From a bacterium (GTDB lineage Bacteria > Patescibacteriota > Minisyncoccia > UBA6257 > JAGOQP01): a stretch of 64,000 nt of DNA. The notes under the pieces were generated by a model. The model ran no database searches, was not told where the DNA came from, and saw only the letters and a list, made by a program, of their open reading frames with translations. The position numbers and the translations under genes are program-made. This document shows positions 13,296 through 64,000 of this stretch, one piece after another (within the stretch, counting starts at the first letter, position 1; each line of letters opens with the position of its first letter). The stretch lies in the NCBI GenBank assembly GCA_021780615.1, contig JAJXYJ010000022.1:809-64808 (forward strand). Direction: 5' to 3'.

Positions 13296-13660
13296 ATGAG
13301 ACCCTTCGCTTCACTCAGGGTGACAGAAAAAAAGATGACAAATCTTTTCGTTATACCGAGACCCCTGCCTGCTGGCAGGCATCTATACTGCCTCATCATG
13401 AGATTCTTCACTCCACTTCGTTTCGTTCAGAATGACAACCCTTTCTGTTATGCTGATCCGCCATTACCACATCGTCATGCTGATCCGCCCAAGGCGGAGA
13501 AGCGTCTCATTCCCCATAACATTAATTCTCGGCATTCATAACTCACCCTAACCCTCTCTTAGCTTAAGAGAGGGGGTCTTTGATGTACGAAATTCCTGGG
13601 ATTTCGTACATCATAACGCTTCCCCGTCATGCTGAGCGGAGCGAAGCATCTCATTCTCCC
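13296..13660. repeat. Second block of the same REP/MITE-like repeats, 78-bp direct repeat copy 2 (13360-13437), and perfect hairpins at 13561-13585 and 13595-13619
   Basis: Near-identical 78-mer. Units gtcatgctgatccgcccaaggcggagaagcgtctc and gtcatgctgagcggagcgaagcatctc. Inverted repeats ccctctctt-agc-ttaag-agagggggt and tgtacgaaat-tcctggg-atttcgtaca. Confidence 0.7.
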
Positions 13661-13739: not shown

Positions 13740-15659
13740 TTATTGAACAGAGACGTACGGGGTCTTGAAGATGTTGCTCATGTAGGAAGAATTCGAGAGA
13801 CCAGTAGATGATGCACTCGTGTTCCACGCTACACCGCTCATGTACATGTAGGTGCTACCCACATTCGCAGCCGTTCCGGGATGCAATGCAGTTGCATTTA
13901 CAGTAAATGTGGCAGTTGAACCCTTCGGGATATCATAGAATCCAGAGACCTGATTGTAACCAGTCGGATCTTGATATGAGACCGAAGAAGAAGCTACTGC
14001 GGCAGTTGTTGCGCCACCCAAGCTAATCTGGAATGCATTAAGGGTCGATGATGCGAGATAGATATCTGCACCATTTGCCGTCACGTTAAACGTGAAGGTT
14101 CCCGTCATGGTTCCTGTTGCACCTGCATACGTTCCCGCAGTGTAGGTTGCATTCGCGCTTGTCAAAGCAAACGTCGGAGCAACTTTCATGACATAGAACG
14201 TGTCAGATGTGCCGGATCCTGAAAGGCTAGAACCGGTGTATGTGGTGCCATCAGACTTGTAGGCAACCAAACCAGGGGTGTTGACTGTTACAACAGTGCT
14301 GCTTGCATTGTTGCCAGCATTTGAGAAATCACCTTTTACCGTGATGACTTTCGTGCTGTTAGCAGGCACCTGGAAGCCATTCATCATGTTGGTGAATGTT
14401 GCATATCCAGTTGAAGCATTGACGCTCGCTGACTGCAACAAGTTGCTGCCATCGTACAAGTACGCGACAGTCGGTGTTGCGGTGCCGGCGAAGTTTACTA
14501 CAGCCTGGTCAACTTTCGCTACATCATTGTCAGTCTTCAAATCGAAGGCGAACAACGGTGCTGCGCTTACATTACCCTGCGTGTCTGAAACAATCGCGCT
14601 TGAAAGCGGAGAGTTCGGGTCGCGGGATACTGAAAGGGTTGCGGTTGTTGACAAGCTCTTCTTTGCGTTAAACGTAGTGTTCCACGTTGCAAGCGGTCCA
14701 TACTGCTGGATGCCTGCGCCATCGGTTCCGCGAACTGCGTTCACAGGAACAGTGATGACCCATCCACCTGTAGGATAGCTTGTTCCACCCACAGCGTATG
14801 CAGAGTCGATAGTGGAGTACAACGCTGCCTTGACGTACAAGACATGGTACTGTCCATCAGCCGGAACCACATAGTTCAAGCCAGTGAGATACACATAGTA
14901 GTTGGATCCCTGCTTGGTGACAGTGCTGCTGTTCAAAGGAACAGTTGCCAATGTCGCGCCGCTGTCAGAAACAACGGAGAGGGATGACAAAATCTTTGTG
15001 TAGGTCAAGATATCATTCGAAGAACCATTACCAAGCTGAAGCTGAATGCGGTCAATGGTGATCGGTGAGTTCTGTGCCTGAAATTCGAATCCTGCGACAT
15101 TGTCGGCAGTGTCTCCTTCATAGAGATTCTGGCCGTTTGCCGGAGTCGGATTCTGCATGACGGTCAAGATACCTTCAACACCGGTGCTGGGCATCGGGGT
15201 TGGGGTTGATGAACCGGTCGGAGTCGTTGACGGGGTCGGAGTCGGGTTTACCGCAACCATTGAGTTGAGGTTCGCGCGAGTGATCGGGCCAAAGAAACCT
15301 GATGCCGGCGAAATGCCGACGGAAGCCTGATACTTCGCCAAAGCTGCTTTAGTCATAGGACCAAAGTAACCTGTCGGAGCAACTGACAAAAATCCTTTGC
15401 CATTAAGGAATGACTGCAATGCGGTCACTTCTGCACCCTTAGAACCAACAGTGAGATTGCTGGAGTAAGTGTATGAAGATGAACCGGTTGTTGAGCCACC
15501 CTGTGAGGACAATTGTGATTGCAAGGTCTGGATCTGGGCCAAGAGGGCTGCGATCTGGGCCTGCAAGTCTGCGGTGGTCTGAGCTTTCGATACTGAAACG
15601 AAAGTGACAGCCATTGCGAGAACTAACACAACTGACGCAATTTTTACGAAATTTTTCAT
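13740..15659 (-). CDS. Secreted Ser/Thr/Gly-rich cell-surface protein with a peptidoglycan-binding domain (PG_binding_1-like)
   Basis: Signal peptide MKNFVKIASVVLVLAMAVTFVSVSKA. Coiled-coil Q/L-rich stretch. SKGAEVTALQSFLNGKGFLSVAPTGYFGPMTKAALAKYQASVGI matches the PG-binding domain 1 pattern. A long T/S/G/A-rich beta-rich region follows. Confidence 0.6.
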   Translation of the reverse strand: MKNFVKIASVVLVLAMAVTFVSVSKAQTTADLQAQIAALLAQIQTLQSQLSSQGGSTTGSSSYTYSSNLTVGSKGAEVTALQSFLNGKGFLSVAPTGYFGPMTKAALAKYQASVGISPASGFFGPITRANLNSMVAVNPTPTPSTTPTGSSTPTPMPSTGVEGILTVMQNPTPANGQNLYEGDTADNVAGFEFQAQNSPITIDRIQLQLGNGSSNDILTYTKILSSLSVVSDSGATLATVPLNSSTVTKQGSNYYVYLTGLNYVVPADGQYHVLYVKAALYSTIDSAYAVGGTSYPTGGWVITVPVNAVRGTDGAGIQQYGPLATWNTTFNAKKSLSTTATLSVSRDPNSPLSSAIVSDTQGNVSAAPLFAFDLKTDNDVAKVDQAVVNFAGTATPTVAYLYDGSNLLQSASVNASTGYATFTNMMNGFQVPANSTKVITVKGDFSNAGNNASSTVVTVNTPGLVAYKSDGTTYTGSSLSGSGTSDTFYVMKVAPTFALTSANATYTAGTYAGATGTMTGTFTFNVTANGADIYLASSTLNAFQISLGGATTAAVASSSVSYQDPTGYNQVSGFYDIPKGSTATFTVNATALHPGTAANVGSTYMYMSGVAWNTSASSTGLSNSSYMSNIFKTPYVSVQ

Positions 15660-16196
15660 ATCTGAAATAATAATTGTTGTGTGATTTGTAATGGAAAATT
15701 CTGATAGCCTATAGCCGCTTCATATAATCGACCCACTGCTTCATCGGTGAGGACGAGTCAGCAAGCTCATAAAAAGCAACAAAGCTCTTATAGTAAAACA
15801 GAATTTTCGACTTCTTTTTAGGAAGTCGGATGTGAAAGCATGGTCACTCCTGCCATGTTCCCACATCCGAATGCCTAAACAATGTATGATTTACAATTTA
15901 CAGTTTACAGTTTTCAATAATCAATTAATTTTAAAATTATAAAATTTTCAATTCCTGCTTGCCGGCAGGGAAAATTTATTGGAAATTGGAAATTGATCAT
16001 TGGTCATTATCCACCCACCCTTAAAACAAAAAACTCACGGTAGATACGTGAGACAAAAAAATACCATGCACAATAAACAACACAATGTGCATATGCGCCA
16101 GAAGGCAGCATATTTTTTCCGTCTCACTCCTGTTACCACGAGGTACAGGAACAGAAAAAACAAATATGAAATTATAATGTACGTTCCACTTTCACC

Positions 16197-16546
16197 CATT
16201 CGAAATTCGGAACTCAAAATTCACTTTAATTCATCTTATCATACCTCTTATTTTTGTGCAACTCTACAGGACATTGCACAGATAGGTTTACGAGGTTTAT
16301 GAAGGGTGACTGCAAATTACAACGAGGGGTTTAAAGGACTGTTACACCCCTCCGCTTAAGCTATGGGGCACACGCACCCCTCCGCTTAAGCTATGGGGCA
16401 CACGCACCCCTCCGCCAAGGCTACAAGGCACACAGCACCCCTCCGCTTAAGCTAAGAACTGCACACAATATACCAATTACCAGTTACCGTTTACCAGTTA
16501 CTGTTTACCCCCTTTTCTTTCATTCGAAATTCGGAACTCAAAATTC
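16197..16546. repeat. 26-bp exact direct repeats (cattcgaaattcggaactcaaaattc at 16197-16222 and 16521-16546) bracketing a 4x30-bp tandem array (16345-16466)
   Basis: Direct reading of the sequence. Tandem units are cacccctccgcttaagctatggggcacacg x2 exact and x2 degenerate. Confidence 0.8.
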
Positions 16547-16569
16547 GAAATTATCTTACTAATTACCCC

Positions 16570-17493
16570 TTATCTCCTCCCCTTCACCCTCAAAAACGAA
16601 TTCGGGCCTCCAGTGCCTACCCGCTCAATTAAACGCTGATCGGCAAGGGTTTTAATATCGTAGCGTAACGTGCGATCGCTGACGCCGGGAAGTACGGCAA
16701 TAATATCATTTATATGGCACATAGCCCGCTTCTCAATAACTGACATAATCAGCTTCTTGCGTTCAGTTGAAGTAAGCTGGCGCGCATCCTGATCTGCCTT
16801 ACTATAAATCTCATGAGAGGTATTGCCGGACTCACCCTCAAACATTGCCGGACTATCTTTTGCCGGACTCTGCTGATGCGACACCGCAGCTGAAGCAGTA
16901 TCATTGCCGGACTCCATATGAACAGCATATAACAATGCGCTGTTGTGTTGAGCAGACGGCATAACAGTATCTTTTATACTTCCGGAAACATTGGTAGCAG
17001 TAGGAGATACATGCGCGTCATCAAAAGCATTGTTGCCAGACTCAAAAGCAACATTGCCGGACTCCTGAGTATCGTTTGCCGGACTATTGCCGGACTTTTC
17101 AGACACATCGCGTAACAGTCTGGCAAAGTCAGAAAAGAGCATAGGAGGCTTTGAAAAAATGCTCTCAATGGTGTTTTCTGTACGCCGATGAAGTTGAGCG
17201 GCGGCGGCATCTTCGGAAACGCGCTGAATTTCTTGCAGTGCCGTACGCAAATTTCCCGTTTCACGGAGAATGACTTTGGTATTAATATCGTTAATTTCAC
17301 CAATGTGAGACCCCAACCGAATAACCTCTTCTAACTCATCCAAAGCAACCGCATCTTTAGCAGAAAGATAAGCAAGCGCCTTTGCCTCCAACACCTTTTT
17401 AAGATCTACACGTCCCACCGCATCGGCCACCCGAAAGACAGCCCATACGACCTCAAATGATCTCTGCTTAAAAAATTCGAGGGAGTAGTTCAT
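16570..17493 (-). CDS. Putative transcriptional regulator with C-terminal winged-HTH (DeoR-like) and an internal ESGN-repeat linker
   Basis: C-terminal MSVIEKRAMCHINDIIAVLPGVSDRTLRYDIKTLADQRLIERVG is wHTH-like. Internal repeats ESGNVAFESGNNAF...ESGND...ESGNTS are encoded by about six ttgccggact DNA repeats. Confidence 0.4.
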   Translation of the reverse strand: MNYSLEFFKQRSFEVVWAVFRVADAVGRVDLKKVLEAKALAYLSAKDAVALDELEEVIRLGSHIGEINDINTKVILRETGNLRTALQEIQRVSEDAAAAQLHRRTENTIESIFSKPPMLFSDFARLLRDVSEKSGNSPANDTQESGNVAFESGNNAFDDAHVSPTATNVSGSIKDTVMPSAQHNSALLYAVHMESGNDTASAAVSHQQSPAKDSPAMFEGESGNTSHEIYSKADQDARQLTSTERKKLIMSVIEKRAMCHINDIIAVLPGVSDRTLRYDIKTLADQRLIERVGTGGPNSFLRVKGRR

Positions 17494-17796
17494 ACAATGG
17501 TTTCACCATATACCCAACCCCCCACCCCGTCAAATAACAAGTTATCCACAGGGACATTAAAAAGACAGTACGGAAAAAAACAGTACAAAAAAGGACGGCG
17601 CAAAAAAAGACGGTACAAAAATATTTTACATTTTCTCCCCCTTGCATCTCATTCCATTTATATCTTATTTCCCCTTGCATCTTTTATTTTGTTTCACGCT
17701 CCCCGATTCATACTCCTTGTGTTTCACATTCTATTTTCTACTTCCTACTTTTTTATTTTCTATTTTTTACTCACCGATCCCCACCACTCCCTACTC

Positions 17797-17840
17797 CCTG
17801 CTCCCCTTTCCGTCCCGATCGGGACGGAAAGGGGAGCAGG
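17797..17840. promoter_or_regulatory. Perfect 44-bp palindrome centred on GATC in a divergent intergenic region
   Basis: cctgctcccctttccgtcccga|tcgggacggaaaggggagcagg is identical to its own reverse complement. It lies at the end of a ~330-nt G-depleted polypyrimidine tract (17500-17830). Confidence 0.5.
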
Positions 17841-18344
17841 AAAAACATCAACGCCACCGCAAACCACACCACAAACCATCCGTTAGAAAAAAATTATCAC
17901 GCTACATATATAAAGATGTTTTTGCTTTCGTGGATGAAACTATCCACAAAAACACCTTTTAGAAAAAATAATGGTGATATAATAAAAAAATATAAAAACA
18001 TACCATTGAATATTTGCATTGTATAAAAATTACGATGCTACTCATATTTTAAAAGCATGTCGATAAAACACTCACTATGAACCGGTTATCTCTACCATAC
18101 ACCATATGCGCCGTCGTAGACGCCACGTACTTCTTTAGCGCTTTATTTAAAAAGCACACATATCATCCTGAACCGTGGGATGATTTTTATTATCTATGGA
18201 AAACCTAATTCCTTTTAATGCTCTCATTATCACCACGCTTATGTGCCTGATCATAAGCAAACGCTTCCACATACTATAAATACACATGAACCATCACACC
18301 CACTAATAACCAATTACCATTAAAGAAACCAAATTCAAACATCT

Positions 18345-18887
18345 ATGATGCACTCCGAAGACCAATTATCGCCACCCGCACATACAGCAAGCCGCACACT
18401 CCTCATCTCTATTGCCATATGTGTAGGCATTATCGCCCTCAGTGTTGGCGCTCTATTTATATGGGGAAATTATCTCTCCCCCGAAGCTCAGAGCACCCAC
18501 ACCATGCAAAAGAATTATGAGACGTACCAAGTATGGGAACAGCAACACAATCAAGATCTCACCCTGGATACCTATGGAGGCACCACTCCCGAGGAAACTC
18601 TGCAACTATTCGTGGACGCACTTGATGATGAAGATATTGAACTCGCGAGTAAGTATTTTGTACTCGATCAAAGAGAACAATGGGCTGAAGGACTTAAAAA
18701 TATACAGCGAGAAGAAAAAATAGATGAAATAATAAATACTATAAAAAACGCACAAGCGTCAGAAAGAGATACTGGATCAGAAAACCAAAAGGAATTTGTT
18801 GTAAAAAATAAAAATGGTGAAGTAGATTACGCCATTATATTAACACTTAACAACCAATCAAACATATGGAAAATAGAAAGTATGTAG
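18345..18887 (+). CDS. Hypothetical membrane-anchored protein
   Basis: 180 aa with an N-terminal TM ([22 protein letters not shown]). Its stop overlaps the start of the downstream large secreted protein. Confidence 0.4.
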
Positions 18888-21800
18888 TCCTGCTTACGCT
18901 CATTGCAGGACTTTTTATTTTTCGAGCCACAGTTGCCTACGGATATACCACCGACACTCATCAATTTCTTACTGAAACTTCGGCGCGATTGTATAACAAC
19001 ACGTATACAAATGAACAAATAAATCAAACACTCATCCCCTTTCTGCTGGATGGCGCCCGAAGGGAAGACGACGCTCCCCGATGGATGAATCATTTTTATG
19101 ACCCAATACACGAAACGGGACTTACTTATAACGCAGCTATAGATCCATGGATAAACGTGGGTAATTGGCAAAGTGCAAAGCTGTGGGCACAAGACTCCGC
19201 AAATCAAACGGGACTCAAATACACCCCCGCCATTGCAAGCATTTTATCGTTTTTTGAAACGGGAACTATACAAAAATTCCTCCCCACGTCCGATTTTACA
19301 TGGAATAAGGCACTCACCTACTGGGTGCAAGGCGACAAGGAAATGGCAATGTTTACATTAGGACACGTCATACATCTATTACAAGATGTATCAGTGCCAG
19401 ACCATACCAGAAACGATCCTCATCCAGGAGACAGCCCTTATGAAAATTACACGGCACAATTTACGCCCAATCATCCCGATGTAAATACATACGCAAATGC
19501 CCAACAAAAAGGAATTACAGCACTTGCAAATATAAACGATTATTTTAAAGGATTGGCAACATACTCAAATAATAATTTCTACAGCAAAGATACTATAGGA
19601 CTACAGAGTGGCTATTCCTTGCCACAACCGGATAGTTATTCAAAAAGTAATGGTGGCAGAGAATATGAGATTGGTACAAATTCTGATGGCGACTATAGGC
19701 TCGTAATGAGCTTATCAAATAAAGGAAGTTTAGTATTGGGAAACACAAAAGCACTGACTATAGATGATGCAGGCATACAAAACGACTACTGGAAACTTCT
19801 ATCAACGAAAGCTACACAATATAGCGCCGGCCTTATGCATGCATTCATACAAGAGGCATATGCAAAAGAAAAAGATCCATCGTTTGTTGTGCGTCCCGAA
19901 TCGTCATTTTTGGGACAAATTGTCTCCACCGCACAAAATGCTTTTAACCAAGTAAGCGGTTTTATACAGACAACAGTATTTGGAAAACCCGCATTCAGCA
20001 CTGTTCAAGAAATTCCACTTACGCAACAAGATAACACCTCATCGGGCGCATCTGACACCACATTAAGCACACCATATAACGCACCAACACAAACGCCCCG
20101 CCCATCATTCGCCCCATCTACAACACTCATTCCCACACCTTCTCCGATATCATTACCCAAAACATCCACAACACCCGTACCAATACCAAAGTCGACCACA
20201 ACACCAAAACCAAATCCAACACCAACCCCAAAACCAACAGCTACTCCAAAACCGAGCGCAACGCCAAAGCCAACCACAACACCAAGTATACAAGCAAATC
20301 AAGCAACTCCGTCATGTGCTCTTTCGTATGCATCACCGACGTGGGGACCCGTTATATTGAGCGAAGTGGCGTGGATGGGAACAGCCGCAAGTACCGCTGA
20401 TGAATGGATTGAACTCAAAAACATAGGAGCTGCATCGGTGACTCTATCCGGATGGACCATACGCAACGAAAGCGGCAGTGTCGCCATCAACCTGGGAGCG
20501 GGAACAACAAAAACCCTATCCCCCGGGGAGCACATGCTATTAGAAAGAACGGATGATACGACGTTGCCCAACATAAAAGCGGACATTATATATACCGGCG
20601 CACTGGCAAATAGCAATGAAAAACTTCAACTCTTTAACGCATCGTGCATGCTCCAAGACGCCGCATACGCATCACCACAATGGCCCGCAGGAAATGCTTC
20701 GGAAAAAAGGACGATGGAACGAAACGGGGCAACACATGGCTGGTATAGCTCAAGCGTTATCGGCGGGACACCTCATGCAAACAATTCAGCAATCCCCACT
20801 CCAACCCCAACTCCAACCCCCGCGCCATCAAATGGTGGAGGCGGTGGCGGAGGTGGAAATACAAATCAAACCCCAACACCAACACCAACACCAAATCCAA
20901 CCCCGACCCCAACTCCATCTGCGTCGCCAACTCCTGAACCATCACCAACTCCAACGCCCACCCCTACACCATCACCATCACCAACTCCAATAGTACTGAC
21001 ATCCGGCGATATACGTATAACCGAGATTATGTATAACACTTCCGACGCCGATGAAGGAAGGGAATGGATAGAAATATATAATGCATCTCTGCAAAATATT
21101 CCCACAGAAACAATCCGCATTAATGAAGGAGAATCCCACCATTATATACACACCGCAAACGATACAGATGGCATATTGCCCGCAGAAACATACATCGTTA
21201 TTGCCAACAATCCAGAAAAATTTATGGCAGACTATCCATTTTATACCGGACAACTTTTTAAAAGCGCATTTTCACTGAGCAACGAAGGAGAAATAATACA
21301 GATCACCAATCAAGATACCATTTTAGATGAGCTGTCCTACACCAAAGACCAAGGAGCAAATGGAAATGAGAAAACATTACAAAATATAGACGGCACATGG
21401 TATGAAGCAACTCCCTCGCCAGGACGAGCAAATAGCATTAACGACATAGTACATACCGACACAGCAACATCGTCAGAGATGCTCACCAAAGAACCCCAAC
21501 AAGTCCATATAACATATACTCCTGCGACCGTCAGTATAACCGCAACATGGGACTACGAGCCGCACACCTACGACACAGAAATTACCTACACCGTACATGA
21601 CATGACCGATCCCGCACACGATCAGATATTAACAACAACCACCGATATCGCCGCTACCATACCACTACGCAGTGTAGGTACGACTTATCGTATTGGTGTG
21701 CAGGCAACACAAGAAGGAAAAGATCCTTCGCCAATAACCCCGCATGAAATACAGGTTCCCAGTTTTGTAAAAAATATAGCCTTTTATGATGCGGCACATC

Positions 21801-22651
21801 CGACGGCAGACATATTTTTTGATCACTACCCATTCATACCCAATGGCATTCAGGAAGCCCTCGGAAAAAGACTGATGGTATTTTACTACAACACTGATGC
21901 AGTGCCGCAAACAATAATTGAAGGAAGTATTTTTAACACTGGCAGTGCATGGGGTCCTGAAGCAATGCACAACCTCACCGATGTTTCATATAATTTTTGC
22001 AGAAGCGGATACGGATCACAGCACACACTCATTATGGCAGACGATCTAAATACCTGTTTTGGCACGGTGACACCAGAAAGCATTGACACAAAAGAACTAC
22101 GAATATTTCCCGAAACAAGCGCTCCCGAAAATGGTTCATTTCTAACCGTTGCATTCTTTACACTCACCCAATCAAACATCTGGAGTGGTGGAACGGAAAC
22201 ATACACGTTGTTAGCTGTTGATAAAACACACTATCCATTTTTATCAACTATCACAAAAATCCCACCAACTAATCCTGACATCCTATCCGTCACAACAACA
22301 CCAATAATCAATGGTACCGGTGGACAACTTTCATTGCGTTGGAGAGTAGCAACTGATCCTGATGGATACAACAATCACATCCAATATAGTATTGCCTACC
22401 ACCTCACATCAGATGGGAGTGAACCTGTATGGCAAGACATATATTGCACTCCTTCAGATAATGAATGCACCAACACATCTCAATACATACCAACACCAGG
22501 AACCTATACCATACTTTTACGCGCCCAAGATGAACAGGGAAAATATTCTGATGTTATAGAAGCAACCACCATCGTCCAAGACGATACACTAGTCGGCATC
22601 AATAGAAAAAACATTGCTATAACTATATGTGCACAGCATCAATATGTATAA
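18866..22651 (+). CDS. Large secreted multidomain protein. It has an N-terminal Zn-dependent PLC/S1-P1 nuclease-like domain, Pro/Thr-rich linkers, two lamin-tail domains (LTD) and C-terminal beta-rich (FN3/Ig-like) domains.
   Basis: Signal peptide [41 protein letters not shown] matches the H-x3-D-x3-P-x-H zinc motif of phospholipase C/P1 nuclease (compare HYLGDVNQPMH and HFIGDMTQPLH). Two LTD-like segments: [36 protein letters not shown] and [31 protein letters not shown] linkers. Confidence 0.55.
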
Positions 22652-56070: not shown

Positions 56071-56293
56071 CGTGATACTATAGCATACATCATCATGTCA
56101 TAAAGCACATCATACACACACATCGCATAGCATCCACACTCTAAAAATTACCATCATTATTACCATCATCTCCACCATCATTATTATTATCATTATTACC
56201 ACCACCCCTACCACCATCATTATTATTACCACCACCCCTGCCACATCCATATACACCCCCTCACTCACACACACCATACACATACACCATATA

Positions 56294-56349
56294 TTCAATA
56301 TATTGAAGATAGTCTCAATTTCAAACGATCGTAAAAATTGAGATAATTT
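56294..56349. promoter_or_regulatory. Copy 1 of a ~58-bp direct repeat containing a 9-bp inverted repeat (tctcaattt-N14-aaattgaga); candidate operator/promoter element
   Basis: attcaatatattgaagatagtctcaatttcaaacgatcgtaaaaattgagataat. A second copy is at 56995-57052. The loop contains the palindrome cgatcg. Confidence 0.5.
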
Positions 56350-56368
56350 TTACAGATAATAAATGATG

Positions 56369-56950
56369 TTATTTATGTTGTTGAGTGTGGACATGTTTAT
56401 ATTGAAGAGTTCCCTTTCCCGACAACTCTATAATTTCCACATATTGAACAATGTCCAAATCACGCAAATGATGCAAAAAAGACGACGGTATTTTTGTGCT
56501 ACCAATCCACACACTTCGCCGAAGAAAGGTAAATTCCAAAGTCTTAAGCGCTTCACGTAGCCACGCCCTATATAATTTTTTACTTTCAGGAATATCAAAG
56601 ACAATAACAATGGGAGTCTTTGTATAACAAATATTATACGAACATTTTGGAAGCATATTTCTCTTTTTTGTAAAAAACTGTTTAATACATGCAATTCCTT
56701 TTTTTGTTATAGACATATCAGAAGAAAGTAAGCCATCTTTTCTGAGACGTGACGACATAACCGCGTATCGACGCTTTAATATACGAAATTCATCACCGTC
56801 ACCATAATCCCTACCACTCTCCTCGAGCGTATGTACATTCGCCCATAATTGACGCGTGGAACCAGCCGAAAAAAGAAACGCCTCAAAAGCACTTGAAAAT
56901 TTTCTACTTTGCACATTTTTTAAAAAATCAACCTTAGAAACCCTTCTCAT
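56369..56950 (-). CDS. Hypothetical protein with an N-terminal wHTH-like region and a C-terminal Cas2-like ferredoxin-fold region (PaaX-like architecture)
   Basis: YAVMSSRLRKDGLLSS is wHTH-like. IVIVFDIPESKKLYRAWLREALKTLEFTFLRRSVWIG...IVQYVEIIEL follows the beta-alpha-beta pattern of Cas2/PaaX C-terminal domains. The assignment rests on pattern similarity only. Confidence 0.3.
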   Translation of the reverse strand: MRRVSKVDFLKNVQSRKFSSAFEAFLFSAGSTRQLWANVHTLEESGRDYGDGDEFRILKRRYAVMSSRLRKDGLLSSDMSITKKGIACIKQFFTKKRNMLPKCSYNICYTKTPIVIVFDIPESKKLYRAWLREALKTLEFTFLRRSVWIGSTKIPSSFLHHLRDLDIVQYVEIIELSGKGTLQYKHVHTQQHK

Positions 56951-56994: not shown

Positions 56995-57052
56995 ATTCAA
57001 TATTATGAACATTATCTCAATTTCAAACGATCGTAAAAATTGAGATAATGAA
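56995..57052. promoter_or_regulatory. Copy 2 of the 58-bp hairpin-containing direct repeat, immediately upstream of the 56369-56950 gene
   Basis: attcaatattatgaacattatctcaatttcaaacgatcgtaaaaattgagataatg. Confidence 0.5.
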
Positions 57053-61986: not shown

Positions 61987-64000
61987 ATGGCAAAAAAAGA
62001 GGAACAAAAACAAGCAATACTTATTGATGCCCATTCACTCATTCATCGATGTTTTCATGCTGTTCCCCCACTTACCAATAGCAAAGGAGAACCGACGGGA
62101 GCATTATACGGAGTCGCATCAGTGTTGCTTAAAATCATACAGCGACAACACATCGACTACATTGCTGCCGCATTTGATCGCCCCGAACCAACTCTGCGAA
62201 AACAACGCTATGACCAATATAAAATTCATCGCCCTGCCGCATCCGACGAACTCGTTTCACAACTCATTGAATCACGCAATCTTTTTACAAGCTTTTCCAT
62301 ACCCGTACTTGAAAAACCGGGCCACGAAGGCGATGACATCATCGGCACATGCGTAGATCTCTTTACCAAACAACAAAATAATATACACGTTACCATTCTT
62401 ACTGGAGACCTTGATTCTCTCCAGCTTATTGACGATGAACGCATTGTGGTAGAAACATTTAAAAAAGGAATTACTGACACTGTTATATATGATGCCGCAG
62501 CGGTCGCCGCTCGCTACCACATTACTCCTGCACAATTTATTGATTTTAAAGCACTTGTTGGTGATGCATCAGACAATATTCCCGGCGTTGCCGGTATCGG
62601 CGAAAAAACCGCAACAGAAATTCTTACCACGTATGGATCCCTTGAAACATTTCTTGCGCAAGGTACCAACGAACGCTTTTATAAAAAAATTGCTGATCAA
62701 CGCAAGCAAGCATTTCTCTCAAAAGAACTTGCCACCATCAACCGCGCAGTCCCTCTTGATATATCCCTGAAAGATTTAGTTTTTTCATACGATCCTGAGC
62801 GGATACAATCATATTTTATAGAACAAGACTTCACCTCACTTACAAAACGTCTCAGTTCACAAAACACACTCCACCCCATCACTTCCGCGCGCGCAGCAAA
62901 GAACGCAACACCTATAGATGCTATGCCGCTGTGCCCCTGTACTGATGCTCATGGAAACATGGTGCATGTTGGCTATGATATAAAAAACTTTTTCAAAGAA
63001 GGGTCCGTTCCCGTTCCATACTTTGATGTCCGCCTTGCCCACGAACTCATTGGTATCAATGCGCGAACATGGCGCGAGTTGTCATTAAAACTTTTTAAAA
63101 AAGAATTGTCTTATGAGGATTGTATGCAACAAGCATACACCACCCTCTCTCAACGCATCGCCGAAAGCCCCGCGGTCAATGTATGGGAAAATATAGAGCT
63201 TCCCCTTATTCCCATTATCGCCCGCATGGAAAAAATTGGCGTCCTTATCGATCGCCTCCATCTAACTCAGGTAGGCGCCGCCCTTGACAAGGCGATTGCG
63301 GAAAAAGAAACGCTTATACACAAAACAACGGGGTTAATTAATATTAATTCTCCCAAACAGCTTGGCACATTTCTTTCAACCACCTACCACATTCCCGTCA
63401 CCTCAACGGCCGCTGATAAACTTAAAAAAATAGAAGAAAAAATTCCGCTCGTCAAAGATATTGTAGCCTATCGCGAACTCTTTAAACTACAAACCACCTA
63501 TGTGCGTGCCTTTGAAAAATTAGTCGCCGCCGATGGAACGATACACCCCACGTTCCTCCAACTTGGCGCCGCAACAGGAAGACTTTCATGCACCAATCCA
63601 AACCTTCAAAACATTCCCCAGGAATCATCGTGGTCACATGACATACGAAATATATTTATCGCGCCGCCACATACCACCTTCGTCGCATTTGATTATTCCC
63701 AAATTGAACTCCGTGTAGTAGCAACATTGGCCAATGACATGCACATGATTGAGGCCTTTCGACGAGGTGATGACATTCACACACTGACGGCACATAAAAT
63801 TTTTCACACACCCATTCATGAGATCACCAAAGCACAACGACGGCTCGCAAAGACGCTCAACTTCGGCATGGTGTACGGCATGGGTTCCCGCGCGCTTGCC
63901 CAGCAAAGCGGACTCTCCAGCGCTCAAGCAAAAGAATTTATAGAAACATACTTCAAAGAATTTTCCTCCATTAAGCACTGGCAAGAACAAGTCCTTCGCG
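61987..64000 (+). CDS. polA: DNA polymerase I (5'-3' exonuclease plus polymerase domain); 3'-partial, continuing beyond the window
   Basis: N-terminal AILIDAHSLIHRCFHA...GEPTGALYG is the 5'-nuclease domain. HhH region GVAGIGEKTA. Downstream polymerase motifs ...LLQTYVRAFEKL... and ...DYSQIELRVVA... are consistent with PolA motif A. Confidence 0.85.
   Translation, partial: MAKKEEQKQAILIDAHSLIHRCFHAVPPLTNSKGEPTGALYGVASVLLKIIQRQHIDYIAAAFDRPEPTLRKQRYDQYKIHRPAASDELVSQLIESRNLFTSFSIPVLEKPGHEGDDIIGTCVDLFTKQQNNIHVTILTGDLDSLQLIDDERIVVETFKKGITDTVIYDAAAVAARYHITPAQFIDFKALVGDASDNIPGVAGIGEKTATEILTTYGSLETFLAQGTNERFYKKIADQRKQAFLSKELATINRAVPLDISLKDLVFSYDPERIQSYFIEQDFTSLTKRLSSQNTLHPITSARAAKNATPIDAMPLCPCTDAHGNMVHVGYDIKNFFKEGSVPVPYFDVRLAHELIGINARTWRELSLKLFKKELSYEDCMQQAYTTLSQRIAESPAVNVWENIELPLIPIIARMEKIGVLIDRLHLTQVGAALDKAIAEKETLIHKTTGLININSPKQLGTFLSTTYHIPVTSTAADKLKKIEEKIPLVKDIVAYRELFKLQTTYVRAFEKLVAADGTIHPTFLQLGAATGRLSCTNPNLQNIPQESSWSHDIRNIFIAPPHTTFVAFDYSQIELRVVATLANDMHMIEAFRRGDDIHTLTAHKIFHTPIHEITKAQRRLAKTLNFGMVYGMGSRALAQQSGLSSAQAKEFIETYFKEFSSIKHWQEQVLR

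Follow-up and report, generated by a model that had tools for sequence, protein, structure and literature searches.

The 850-bp intergenic region at positions 17494-18344 of a 64,000-nt stretch of DNA (contig JAJXYJ010000022.1 of assembly GCA_021780615.1; hereafter the window) is the common control region of two divergently transcribed units in a bacterium of the Paceibacterota, a lineage of the candidate phyla radiation (CPR), known here from a metagenome-assembled genome. On the minus strand, the gene at 16570-17493 encodes a 307-aa DNA-binding protein (hereafter the regulator) that consists of an N-terminal four-helix bundle, a disordered linker of about 100 aa and a C-terminal DeoR-type winged helix-turn-helix (wHTH) domain. 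On the plus strand, the gene at 18345-18887 encodes a single-pass membrane protein of 180 aa and is directly followed by the gene for a 1261-aa lamin-tail-domain protein (18866-22651). Between the two units lie predicted promoters, DnaA-type boxes, short repeats and a 44-bp perfect palindrome at 17797-17840, which is the main subject of this analysis.

The palindrome consists of two 22-bp arms that meet without a spacer at the hexamer CGATCG, its core reading TCC-CGATCG-GGA. This sequence occurs once in the window even when three mismatches are allowed, is found in none of 100 shuffles, and has a folding energy of -27 kcal/mol as single-stranded DNA (z = -9.6). A preliminary description of this DNA had reported the flawless 44-bp palindrome, and our analysis confirms it. 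The open reading frames (ORFs) crossing the spacer are not conserved, as described below, and the palindrome does not have the features of an intrinsic terminator. The element lies between two predicted divergent promoters, upstream of both, and between gene starts; it has no spacer loop, and no T-run follows the stem on either strand. With flanks of AAAAACATC on one strand and GAGTAGGG on its complement, a U-tract is missing in both directions. In related loci, canonical terminators that do have a loop and a U-tract are present and look different from the palindromes.

We compared the locus across 35 distinct regulator lineages, drawn from more distant relatives of the regulator (relatives are labelled L0xx). 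Contigs of the same strain (L001-L005) are 100% identical across the spacer and hence uninformative; L006, at 87% protein identity, is a close relative of the window. In an unbiased palindrome scan, 21 of the 35 lineages proved to have a dyad centred on CGATCG in the intergenic DNA beside the regulator gene (19/32 upstream, 3/34 downstream), and none was found elsewhere in the roughly 190 kb of the same loci. The resulting family comprises 23 distinct perfect members, whose lengths range over 34-52 bp with a median of 40, and six near-perfect ones in which one or two positions are mismatched. The arms of different lineages are unrelated in sequence, and conservation is confined to the centre: CGATCG is invariant among the CGATCG-centred members tabulated and is preceded by A in 18/24, by G or C in 20/24 and by T in 18/24, the conserved core being T-S-A-CGATCG-T-S-A. 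This centre is kept across lineages that share just 35-45% protein identity. The palindrome at 17797-17840 is thus one member of a family of perfect palindromes centred on CGATCG that is found throughout the Paceibacterota near genes for small DNA-binding proteins. The family is previously undescribed; literature searches returned no earlier account of it. In viral contigs, we found 11 exact matches to the commonest cores, none of which extends beyond the searched pattern. The long arms are thus specific to the Paceibacterota lineage, and a phage or mobile origin of the core was rejected because the viral matches never become long palindromes.

The symmetry of the family is nearly complete, with Watson-Crick pairs at 576 of 586 arm positions, and the perfect members contain no wobble (G-U-type) positions at all. 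Because selection acting on RNA would allow G-U pairs, the symmetry is maintained at the DNA level. This observation bears directly on the idea that the palindromes act as transcribed RNA hairpins, serving as RNase III sites, transcript stabilizers or terminators without a U-tract. Such a hairpin would be very stable, and at other loci members of the family do lie 0-130 nt after stop codons, with short U-runs following the copies in L057 and L059. The preliminary description had held that recurrence at many transcript ends would reduce the palindrome to a simple terminator family; that expectation is borne out in so far as members follow stop codons elsewhere, but they do so without a consistent U-tract, and no transcript ends at 17797-17840. 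We consider an RNA hairpin improbable: besides the lack of wobble positions in the 23 perfect members and the position of 17797-17840 between divergent promoters, with no gene end and no U-tract on either strand, looped terminators with U-tracts occur in the same loci, and in L010 a canonical terminator already precedes the palindrome. Rfam points in the same direction. The only known RNA in the window at the gathering score of Rfam 15 is a tRNA, and a permissive scan of 15600-18400 gave only sub-threshold microRNA-hairpin matches, located on the palindrome.

Comparison of close relatives indicates that the two arms change together. Between the window and L006, a T>C change in one arm is mirrored by an A>G change in the other, and the window palindrome is the longer of the two: the outer 6 bp of its right arm, AGCAGG, are the reverse complement of the left-arm CCTGCT, where L006 has CCTAGT on the left and ACCATA on the right. 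In L018 and L027, the arms have taken in the neighbouring TTAT(C/A)CACA box, yielding an inverted second copy of it. A parS core is 16 bp long, and in L045 a canonical parS site (TGTTTCACGTGAAACA) is contained in a 40-bp perfect palindrome (L045:105-144), with a second parS at L045:73-88, which points to a general tendency of palindromic protein sites to be extended in these genomes. Template switching is reported to homogenize and expand inverted repeats (PMC7202029, PMC8604942 and PMC13100816). Intrastrand template switching of this kind probably keeps the arms symmetric here, as it fits the mirrored substitutions, the longer arms of the window compared with L006 and the box taken up by the arms in L018 and L027; it is an established mutational process of Escherichia coli and yeast, whereas in this uncultivated lineage it is read from sequence comparison.

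A second gene in the window is bracketed by dyads with the same centre. This gene (56369-56950, minus strand) encodes a PaaX_M/Cas2-like protein of 193 aa. A 35-nt quasi-palindrome centred on CGATCG is located at 56313-56347, 22 nt after its stop codon, and an identical second copy of the 35-mer is located at 57015-57049, 65 nt upstream of its start. There are 13 CGATCG sites in the window, and only three, all intergenic (17797-17840 and the two 35-mers), have dyad arms; the intergenic site at 63249 and all nine intragenic sites are without them. The seven genomes examined with relatives of the PaaX-like gene all have such dyads beside it, usually one on each side; one instance is centred on CGGCCG instead of CGATCG, and the perfect palindromes found there are 40-50 bp long. 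The PaaX-like units occupy five different gene neighbourhoods. L074 and L075 keep the ComM-PcrA neighbourhood with other genes in the slot and have no palindrome, so the palindromes go with the PaaX-like gene. In L060, three palindromes occur in a row. A shared wHTH ancestry of the regulator and the PaaX/Cas2-like protein was considered and rejected, as BLASTP finds no similarity between them; a literature lead on PaaX operators (PMC6651687) proved to concern a TetR-family protein. We also observed, at L061:1492-2480, a gene for an XerC/D-type tyrosine recombinase; 65 nt beyond it lies a perfect palindrome of 36 bp centred on CGGCCG (TAGTGTCCTATTTGACGGCCGTCAAATAGGACACTA), and next comes a PaaX-like gene.

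If template switching can enlarge inverted repeats, the palindromes could be functionless by-products of mutation, grown from short palindromes in repair-poor genomes with CGATCG as the commonest seed. The arms do look neutral and lineage-specific, about 40% of the regulator lineages are without the element, the surrounding DNA is repeat-rich and fast-evolving, and the parS site of L045 sits within just such an extended palindrome. We nevertheless regard this explanation as unlikely. Other 6-bp palindromes are far commoner yet are not extended, and even among the CGATCG sites of the window, the three with dyad arms are the gene-bracketing intergenic ones. Moreover, the centre stays invariant between proteins that have diverged to 35-45% identity, the palindromes are restricted to the flanks of two specific genes, and their lengths fall in a tight range.

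The bracketing of the PaaX/Cas2-like gene raises another alternative, in which the palindromes are boundaries of gene cassettes: att- or REP-like ends at which a recombinase or hairpin nuclease would act on CGATCG, with palindrome-gene-palindrome units moving or persisting together and 17797-17840 representing a solo site. Consistent with this, the PaaX/Cas2-like gene has copies on both sides in most genomes, and the imperfections of the two 35-mers have the same polarity, indicating that they are direct duplicates. The occurrence of the unit in five neighbourhoods, the palindrome-free ComM-PcrA slot of L074 and L075, the three successive palindromes of L060 and the XerC/D-type integrase gene just upstream in L061 can be read in the same way, as can L010, where identical copies lie on both sides of the regulator gene (the downstream one after an intrinsic terminator). 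Furthermore, a conserved tip on variable stems is the pattern expected of hairpin-recognizing enzymes. However, the regulator occupies one syntenic position across all lineages, with or without palindromes; no inversion of the bracketed gene was seen; and the 46 window ORFs scanned against Pfam include no Xer-type recombinase or transposase, nor any dnaA, dnaN, parB or DNA methyltransferase gene. Sites of tyrosine recombinases keep their arms and vary their centre, the opposite of what is found here, and the arms differ between loci of one genome, unlike those of REP families. CPR genomes are in any case heavily rearranged, so varied neighbourhoods are weak evidence. We consider the cassette explanation, the main rival of the reading favoured below, possible but doubtful. 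A broader and equally tentative proposal is that the CGATCG palindromes constitute a new CPR class of structure-dependent element, a hairpin or cruciform that would be read at its invariant tip, with arms that perfect and lengthen themselves, travelling with small wHTH or Cas2-like genes, perhaps serviced or mobilized by them, and marking palindrome-bounded cassettes that would parallel REP-RAYT or att systems while relying on unrelated proteins.

The cassette explanation invites comparison with Xer/dif, pdif and attC sites. These share with the palindromes the arrangement of an arm, a 6-bp centre and another arm, the bracketing of genes by two sites and, in L061, an adjacent XerC/D-like gene. 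In contrast to them, the palindromes combine an invariant centre with variable arms and occur several times per 64 kb, and the locus coincides with no skew switch; being fully symmetric, a palindrome also has no polarity. The REP/REPIN-RAYT systems likewise feature extragenic palindromes of about 35-40 bp, a small gene flanked by copies and hairpin-type recognition with one conserved short motif. Here, however, no HUH/Y1 transposase is found among the bracketed genes, the 64 kb contain three copies of two unrelated arm types, the arms differ between loci, and 17797-17840 lies between divergent promoters, where REPs are not usually found. TIGR-Tas arrays (PMC12045711), in which tandem hairpins that carry box C/D motifs and two spacers adjoin a Tas gene with a Nop domain, were rejected as a match because the palindromes here are single and spacer-less, have no loop or box motifs, and no Nop-domain gene is present in the window.

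The control region of which 17797-17840 forms part has a conserved promoter architecture of its own. A consensus scan predicts the regulator promoter at 17505-17533 on the minus strand, with a -35 element TTGACG (17533-17528), a 17-nt G-rich spacer and a -10 element TATGGT (17510-17505). L006 has a nearly identical copy of the segment 17494-17569, and many relatives have a TTGACN element in the corresponding position. From the predicted transcription start, the regulator mRNA would be almost leaderless. A perfect DnaA-type box, TTATCCACA (17542-17550, plus strand), is positioned 9 nt upstream of the regulator -35 element and reads away from the regulator. This copy beside the regulator promoter is additional to the box of the other unit, is conserved in L006 and L007, and had been missed by the preliminary description. 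On the opposite side, the extended -10 element TGATATAAT (17975-17983, plus strand) marks a predicted promoter towards the membrane-protein gene, which is syntenic with the regulator and divergent from it in about 24 loci. Upstream of it, at 17930-17948 on the plus strand, the hexamer GTGGAT (17930-17935) is followed by the box CTATCCACA (17940-17948), the counterpart of a conserved TTAT(C/A)CACA; these are the DnaA-box-like motifs that had been noted before, a box with an inverted GTGGAT beside it, and they hold up well.

TTAT(C/A)CACA is found upstream of the regulator in about 20 lineages, always towards the membrane-protein gene, and adjoins the palindrome in most loci. In ten lineages (the window, L010, L012, L013, L014, L017, L019, L022, L027 and L035) it lies 26-28 nt before the sequence TGnTAnAAT; in the window the gap between CTATCCACA and TGATATAAT is 26 nt, which centres the box near -46 of the membrane-protein promoter, and in a BLAST alignment 17941-18001 matches the L013 box and promoter. 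Chance alone would yield about two perfect boxes in the whole 290 kb, and the loci are enriched about 15-fold. Within the window alone, TTATNCACA is not enriched (5 found versus 3.1 expected), so the significance of the box derives from its conservation across relatives only. On this comparative evidence, TTAT(C/A)CACA is a putative promoter element of the membrane-protein gene. It agrees with the consensus of DnaA boxes, even in the alternation of C and A at position 5, and DnaA may be its reader, with the regulator as the alternative. Like DnaA-box-controlled promoters, such as that of dnaA itself in autoregulation and those of the E. coli and Bacillus subtilis regulons, this promoter has a TTATNCACA box of consensus type at a constant distance from the core promoter elements, here near -46 of a sigma-70-type extended -10, and the arrangement is conserved in many lineages. 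It differs from them in having a single box and in its targets, a membrane/surface protein operon and a wHTH regulator.

DnaA-type boxes near a palindrome could also point to a chromosomal origin or another DnaA-dependent replication site, a role to which the preliminary description had assigned a low probability. One perfect and one 8/9 box are present, and A/T-rich repeats together with a palindrome beside a wHTH gene superficially resemble an iteron origin. We find the features of an origin to be absent. The suggested check of GC skew gave negative values throughout the 64 kb and no reversal at 17.8 kb, and in 16 of 20 related loci the sign of the skew is the same on both sides. A complete genome of 562 kb has the locus at about 187 kb. 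The two boxes are 390 nt apart rather than clustered, the box has a fixed promoter geometry, the AT-rich repeats are not conserved in L006, and the window contains neither dnaA nor dnaN among its scanned ORFs, as had been noted from the start. A replication role, be it as origin or as terminus, is therefore very improbable.

Taken together, these data lead us to favour a reading in which the palindrome is a regulatory site acting at the DNA level, bound by a protein and/or forming a cruciform, with arms kept symmetric by template switching; we put its probability at roughly 0.5. In this model, the predicted promoter of the regulator unit abuts the start codon and the membrane-protein/lamin-tail-domain operon would be transcribed from the extended -10 at 17975-17983, leaving the palindrome in DNA that neither promoter should transcribe and its dyad to act as DNA. 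A sequence-specific factor would probably recognize the short core T-S-A-CGATCG-T-S-A, while intrastrand template switching or gene conversion would keep the long arms perfectly self-complementary. As the arms are self-complementary, extrusion of a cruciform would be possible under the negative supercoiling between divergent promoters. The most likely role would be that of an operator or insulator for the flanking promoters, with two candidate binders: the regulator encoded next to it, and the PaaX/Cas2-like protein, since elements of the same kind bracket the gene for the latter. The arrangement has the hallmarks of an operator, namely an inverted repeat with a conserved core, placed between predicted divergent promoters and beside a wHTH gene.

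Several observations weigh against this reading. Three palindromes of similar length have other centres: TGGCCA in the downstream copy of L015 and CACGGGCGTG in L019, both adjoining the regulator, and CGGCCG in L061, adjoining the PaaX-like gene. Lineages that have the palindrome share the recognition helix SxRTLRYDI with those that do not (L035 and L048 are examples), and a search for co-variation of the helix with palindrome presence or with the core flank found none. As about 40% of the lineages are without the element although the helix is the same, the palindrome is not an obligatory partner of the regulator. Its distance from the regulator start varies from 73 to 876 nt, unlike that of a classical promoter-overlapping operator. 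That the genes of two unrelated proteins share the CGATCG centre is awkward if each protein binds its own operator, and neutral extension of the arms alone does not predict the narrow length range of 34-52 bp. Since the unrelated PaaX-like gene has similar palindromes and the recognition helix does not differ, the adjacent regulator is just one candidate binder. The operator or cruciform role put forward in the preliminary description is thus strengthened by the conservation of the class, the DNA-level symmetry and the position between divergent promoters, whereas the evidence on the neighbouring regulator as its binder is mixed.

Operators of autoregulated wHTH regulators at divergent promoters, such as the roughly 40-bp bioO of BirA or the multiple operators of DeoR, provide a close parallel to the favoured operator reading. 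As in those systems, a palindromic site spanning about 40 bp lies beside a wHTH gene and between divergent promoters, with its conserved core near the dyad axis, and some genes have a second copy at their other end, an arrangement that DNA looping would require. Here, by contrast, more than 20 lineages have perfect symmetry over 34-52 bp with complete turnover of the arms, the spacing from the promoter differs between loci, about 40% of lineages are without the element and an unrelated gene shares the centre.

The invariant CGATCG, which contains GATC, would also suit an epigenetic switch in which methylation of GATC or CGATCG gates protein binding or cruciform formation, a mechanism compatible with the operator reading. 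The cyanobacterial repeat HIP1 is tied to CGATCG-specific methyltransferases. In one report (10.1101/2024.09.10.611283), this palindrome, GCGATCGC, is linked to methylation; it shares the CGATCG core with the family described here, and the full GCGATCGC is contained in L010 and in the downstream copy of L011. However, HIP1 is an 8-mer that is hyper-abundant genome-wide, including in genes, whereas the elements here are rare, long and intergenic, and GCGATCGC occurs 2 times versus 1.2 expected. GATC and CGATCG are likewise found in the window at about their expected frequencies (210 versus 246 and 13 versus 9.8, respectively), showing no signal of selection, and restriction-site avoidance and a HIP1-like abundance were both rejected on this ground. 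With no DNA methyltransferase gene in the window, and with arms of 17-26 bp for which methylation offers no explanation, we judge an epigenetic switch to be rather improbable. As a separate observation on short palindromes, GGCC (73 found versus 141 expected) and CTAG (19 versus 54) are both strongly under-represented in the window, which may reflect a GGCC-specific restriction system elsewhere in the genome.

The remainder of the spacer is occupied largely by repeats. A 15-nt tandem repeat (AAAAAGACAGTACAA, 4.2 copies) at 17559-17621 carries A-tracts and is fast-evolving filler that is not present in L006. The A-tracts had been described as helically phased; they are indeed there, but they belong to this repeat, and their centre-to-centre spacings are 16, 12.5, 15.5 and 14 nt rather than about 10.5. 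Intrinsic curvature was rejected as an explanation because the A-tract period is 15 nt rather than 10-11 bp. Adjacent to the repeat, a C/T-rich tract at 17619-17796 (178 nt, plus strand) is built of short degenerate repeats and contains 4.5% G, compared with 18.9% in the window, together with 78% C+T and 17% A; CCCCTTGCATCT occurs in it twice, at 17638 and 17671. The G depletion reported earlier is thus real, but it extends over 178 nt, not about 300, and the tract is not pure polypyrimidine. Its longest pure pyrimidine run is 13 nt and its best mirror repeat has 8-nt arms. The proposed H-DNA role was dropped, given the 17% A and the absence of a long homopyrimidine mirror repeat. Nor is the tract unique, as four other window tracts contain 7% G or less; in L006, a tract of similar composition has no sequence match to it. 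The regulator-sense strand beside the palindrome is C-poor and G-rich in many loci, and Tandem Repeats Finder shows both intergenic regions next to the regulator to be packed with short tandem repeats. In our reading, these parts of the spacer (the 15-nt repeats, the tract poor in G and the A/C-rich repeats) are simple sequence that evolves fast and is skewed between strands. Elsewhere in the window, an even more G-depleted intergenic tract (56071-56368; minimum 1.1% G), with ccaccatcattattattaccaccacccct-type repeats, lies upstream of a pcrA/uvrD-like gene, which has an apparently leaderless promoter (TGCTATAGT 6 nt before the ATG).

Further candidates in the spacer were assessed and set aside. 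The plus-strand ORF 17497-17886 (129 aa), a gene call in GCA_021837645.1, spans the unconserved repeats and the palindrome, is not conserved in L006 and has no Pfam match; the minus-strand ORF 17468-17680 (70 aa), called in ENA contigs, spans unconserved repeats and is likewise not conserved in L006. Both public gene calls are probably spurious. A 43-aa ORF at 18077-18208 has no conserved counterpart in relatives, and a small RNA at 17988-18195 was rejected because its folding z-score is only -2.0 and it is not conserved. Within the long 5′ region upstream of the membrane-protein coding sequence, 18162-18184 (plus strand) forms a terminator-like hairpin with a T-run, of uncertain status.

The regulator itself belongs to a large, uncharacterised family that no curated model fits fully. 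Its start at 17493 and its wHTH nature, both of which had been proposed, are confirmed, residues 245-292 in the C-terminal domain matching Pfam HTH_DeoR. For the N-terminal domain of an AlphaFold model, Foldseek returned two weak matches, 2gsc and Avd, the latter a protein of diversity-generating retroelements. The architecture is unusual, joining a bundle like those of Avd and of the 23S-rRNA intervening-sequence proteins to a low-complexity linker with ESGN and SPA repeats. We identified 56 homologues, one of them named Paceibacterota, and relatives carry the names Candidatus Paceibacterota, Wolfebacteria and Parcubacteria; a profile search at E<=1e-10 recovered a family of 629 cluster representatives.

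Other observations concern the DNA downstream of the regulator. The 910-nt gap at 15660-16569 contains a 30-nt repeat (3.6 copies, 16345-16454) and other short repeats, and its segment 16018-16376 is 92.6% identical to L006, compared with 85% for the regulator coding sequence, a conservation without explanation. In the same gap, upstream of the PG_binding_1 gene (13740-15659), we find a candidate leader of about 75 nt on the minus strand (~15715-15800). Its core, AGCUUGCUGAYUCGUCCUCACCGAUGAAGCAGYGGGUCGAUAAUA, is 75-94% identical in about 35 Paceibacterota loci, and its flanks do not align. MAFFT and RNAalifold indicate compensatory changes in an outer stem (UUAUUA:UAAUAA, CACG:CGUG and CUGUUA:UAGCAG), and there is no Rfam match at E<=5. 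We consider this leader a candidate new cis-regulatory RNA of a cell-wall-related gene. A 33-nt near-perfect palindrome at 13581-13613 (TGATGTACGAAATTCC G GGGATTTCGTACATCA) lies in the 1145-nt gap between the PG-binding and Wzy_C genes, which also contains a small GIY-YIG ORF called in L001.

Because CPR bacteria are largely uncultivated, their cis-regulatory DNA is almost unknown. The locus analysed here offers a lineage-conserved promoter architecture, in which an extended -10 is combined with a DnaA-type box near -46, and a class of long perfect palindromes that is unusually clean, its centre being invariant while the two arms evolve in concert; the analysis also removes a tempting but wrong annotation as an origin of replication and flags the two spurious public gene calls. 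If the palindromes are protein-bound or cruciform operators, they would define a small regulon and provide a testable handle on a widespread, uncharacterised wHTH family. If they are cassette boundaries, they would be a pointer to a new mobility or maintenance system. Either way, they present a natural case of the perfection and growth of palindromes, a process so far studied mainly as a mutational curiosity.

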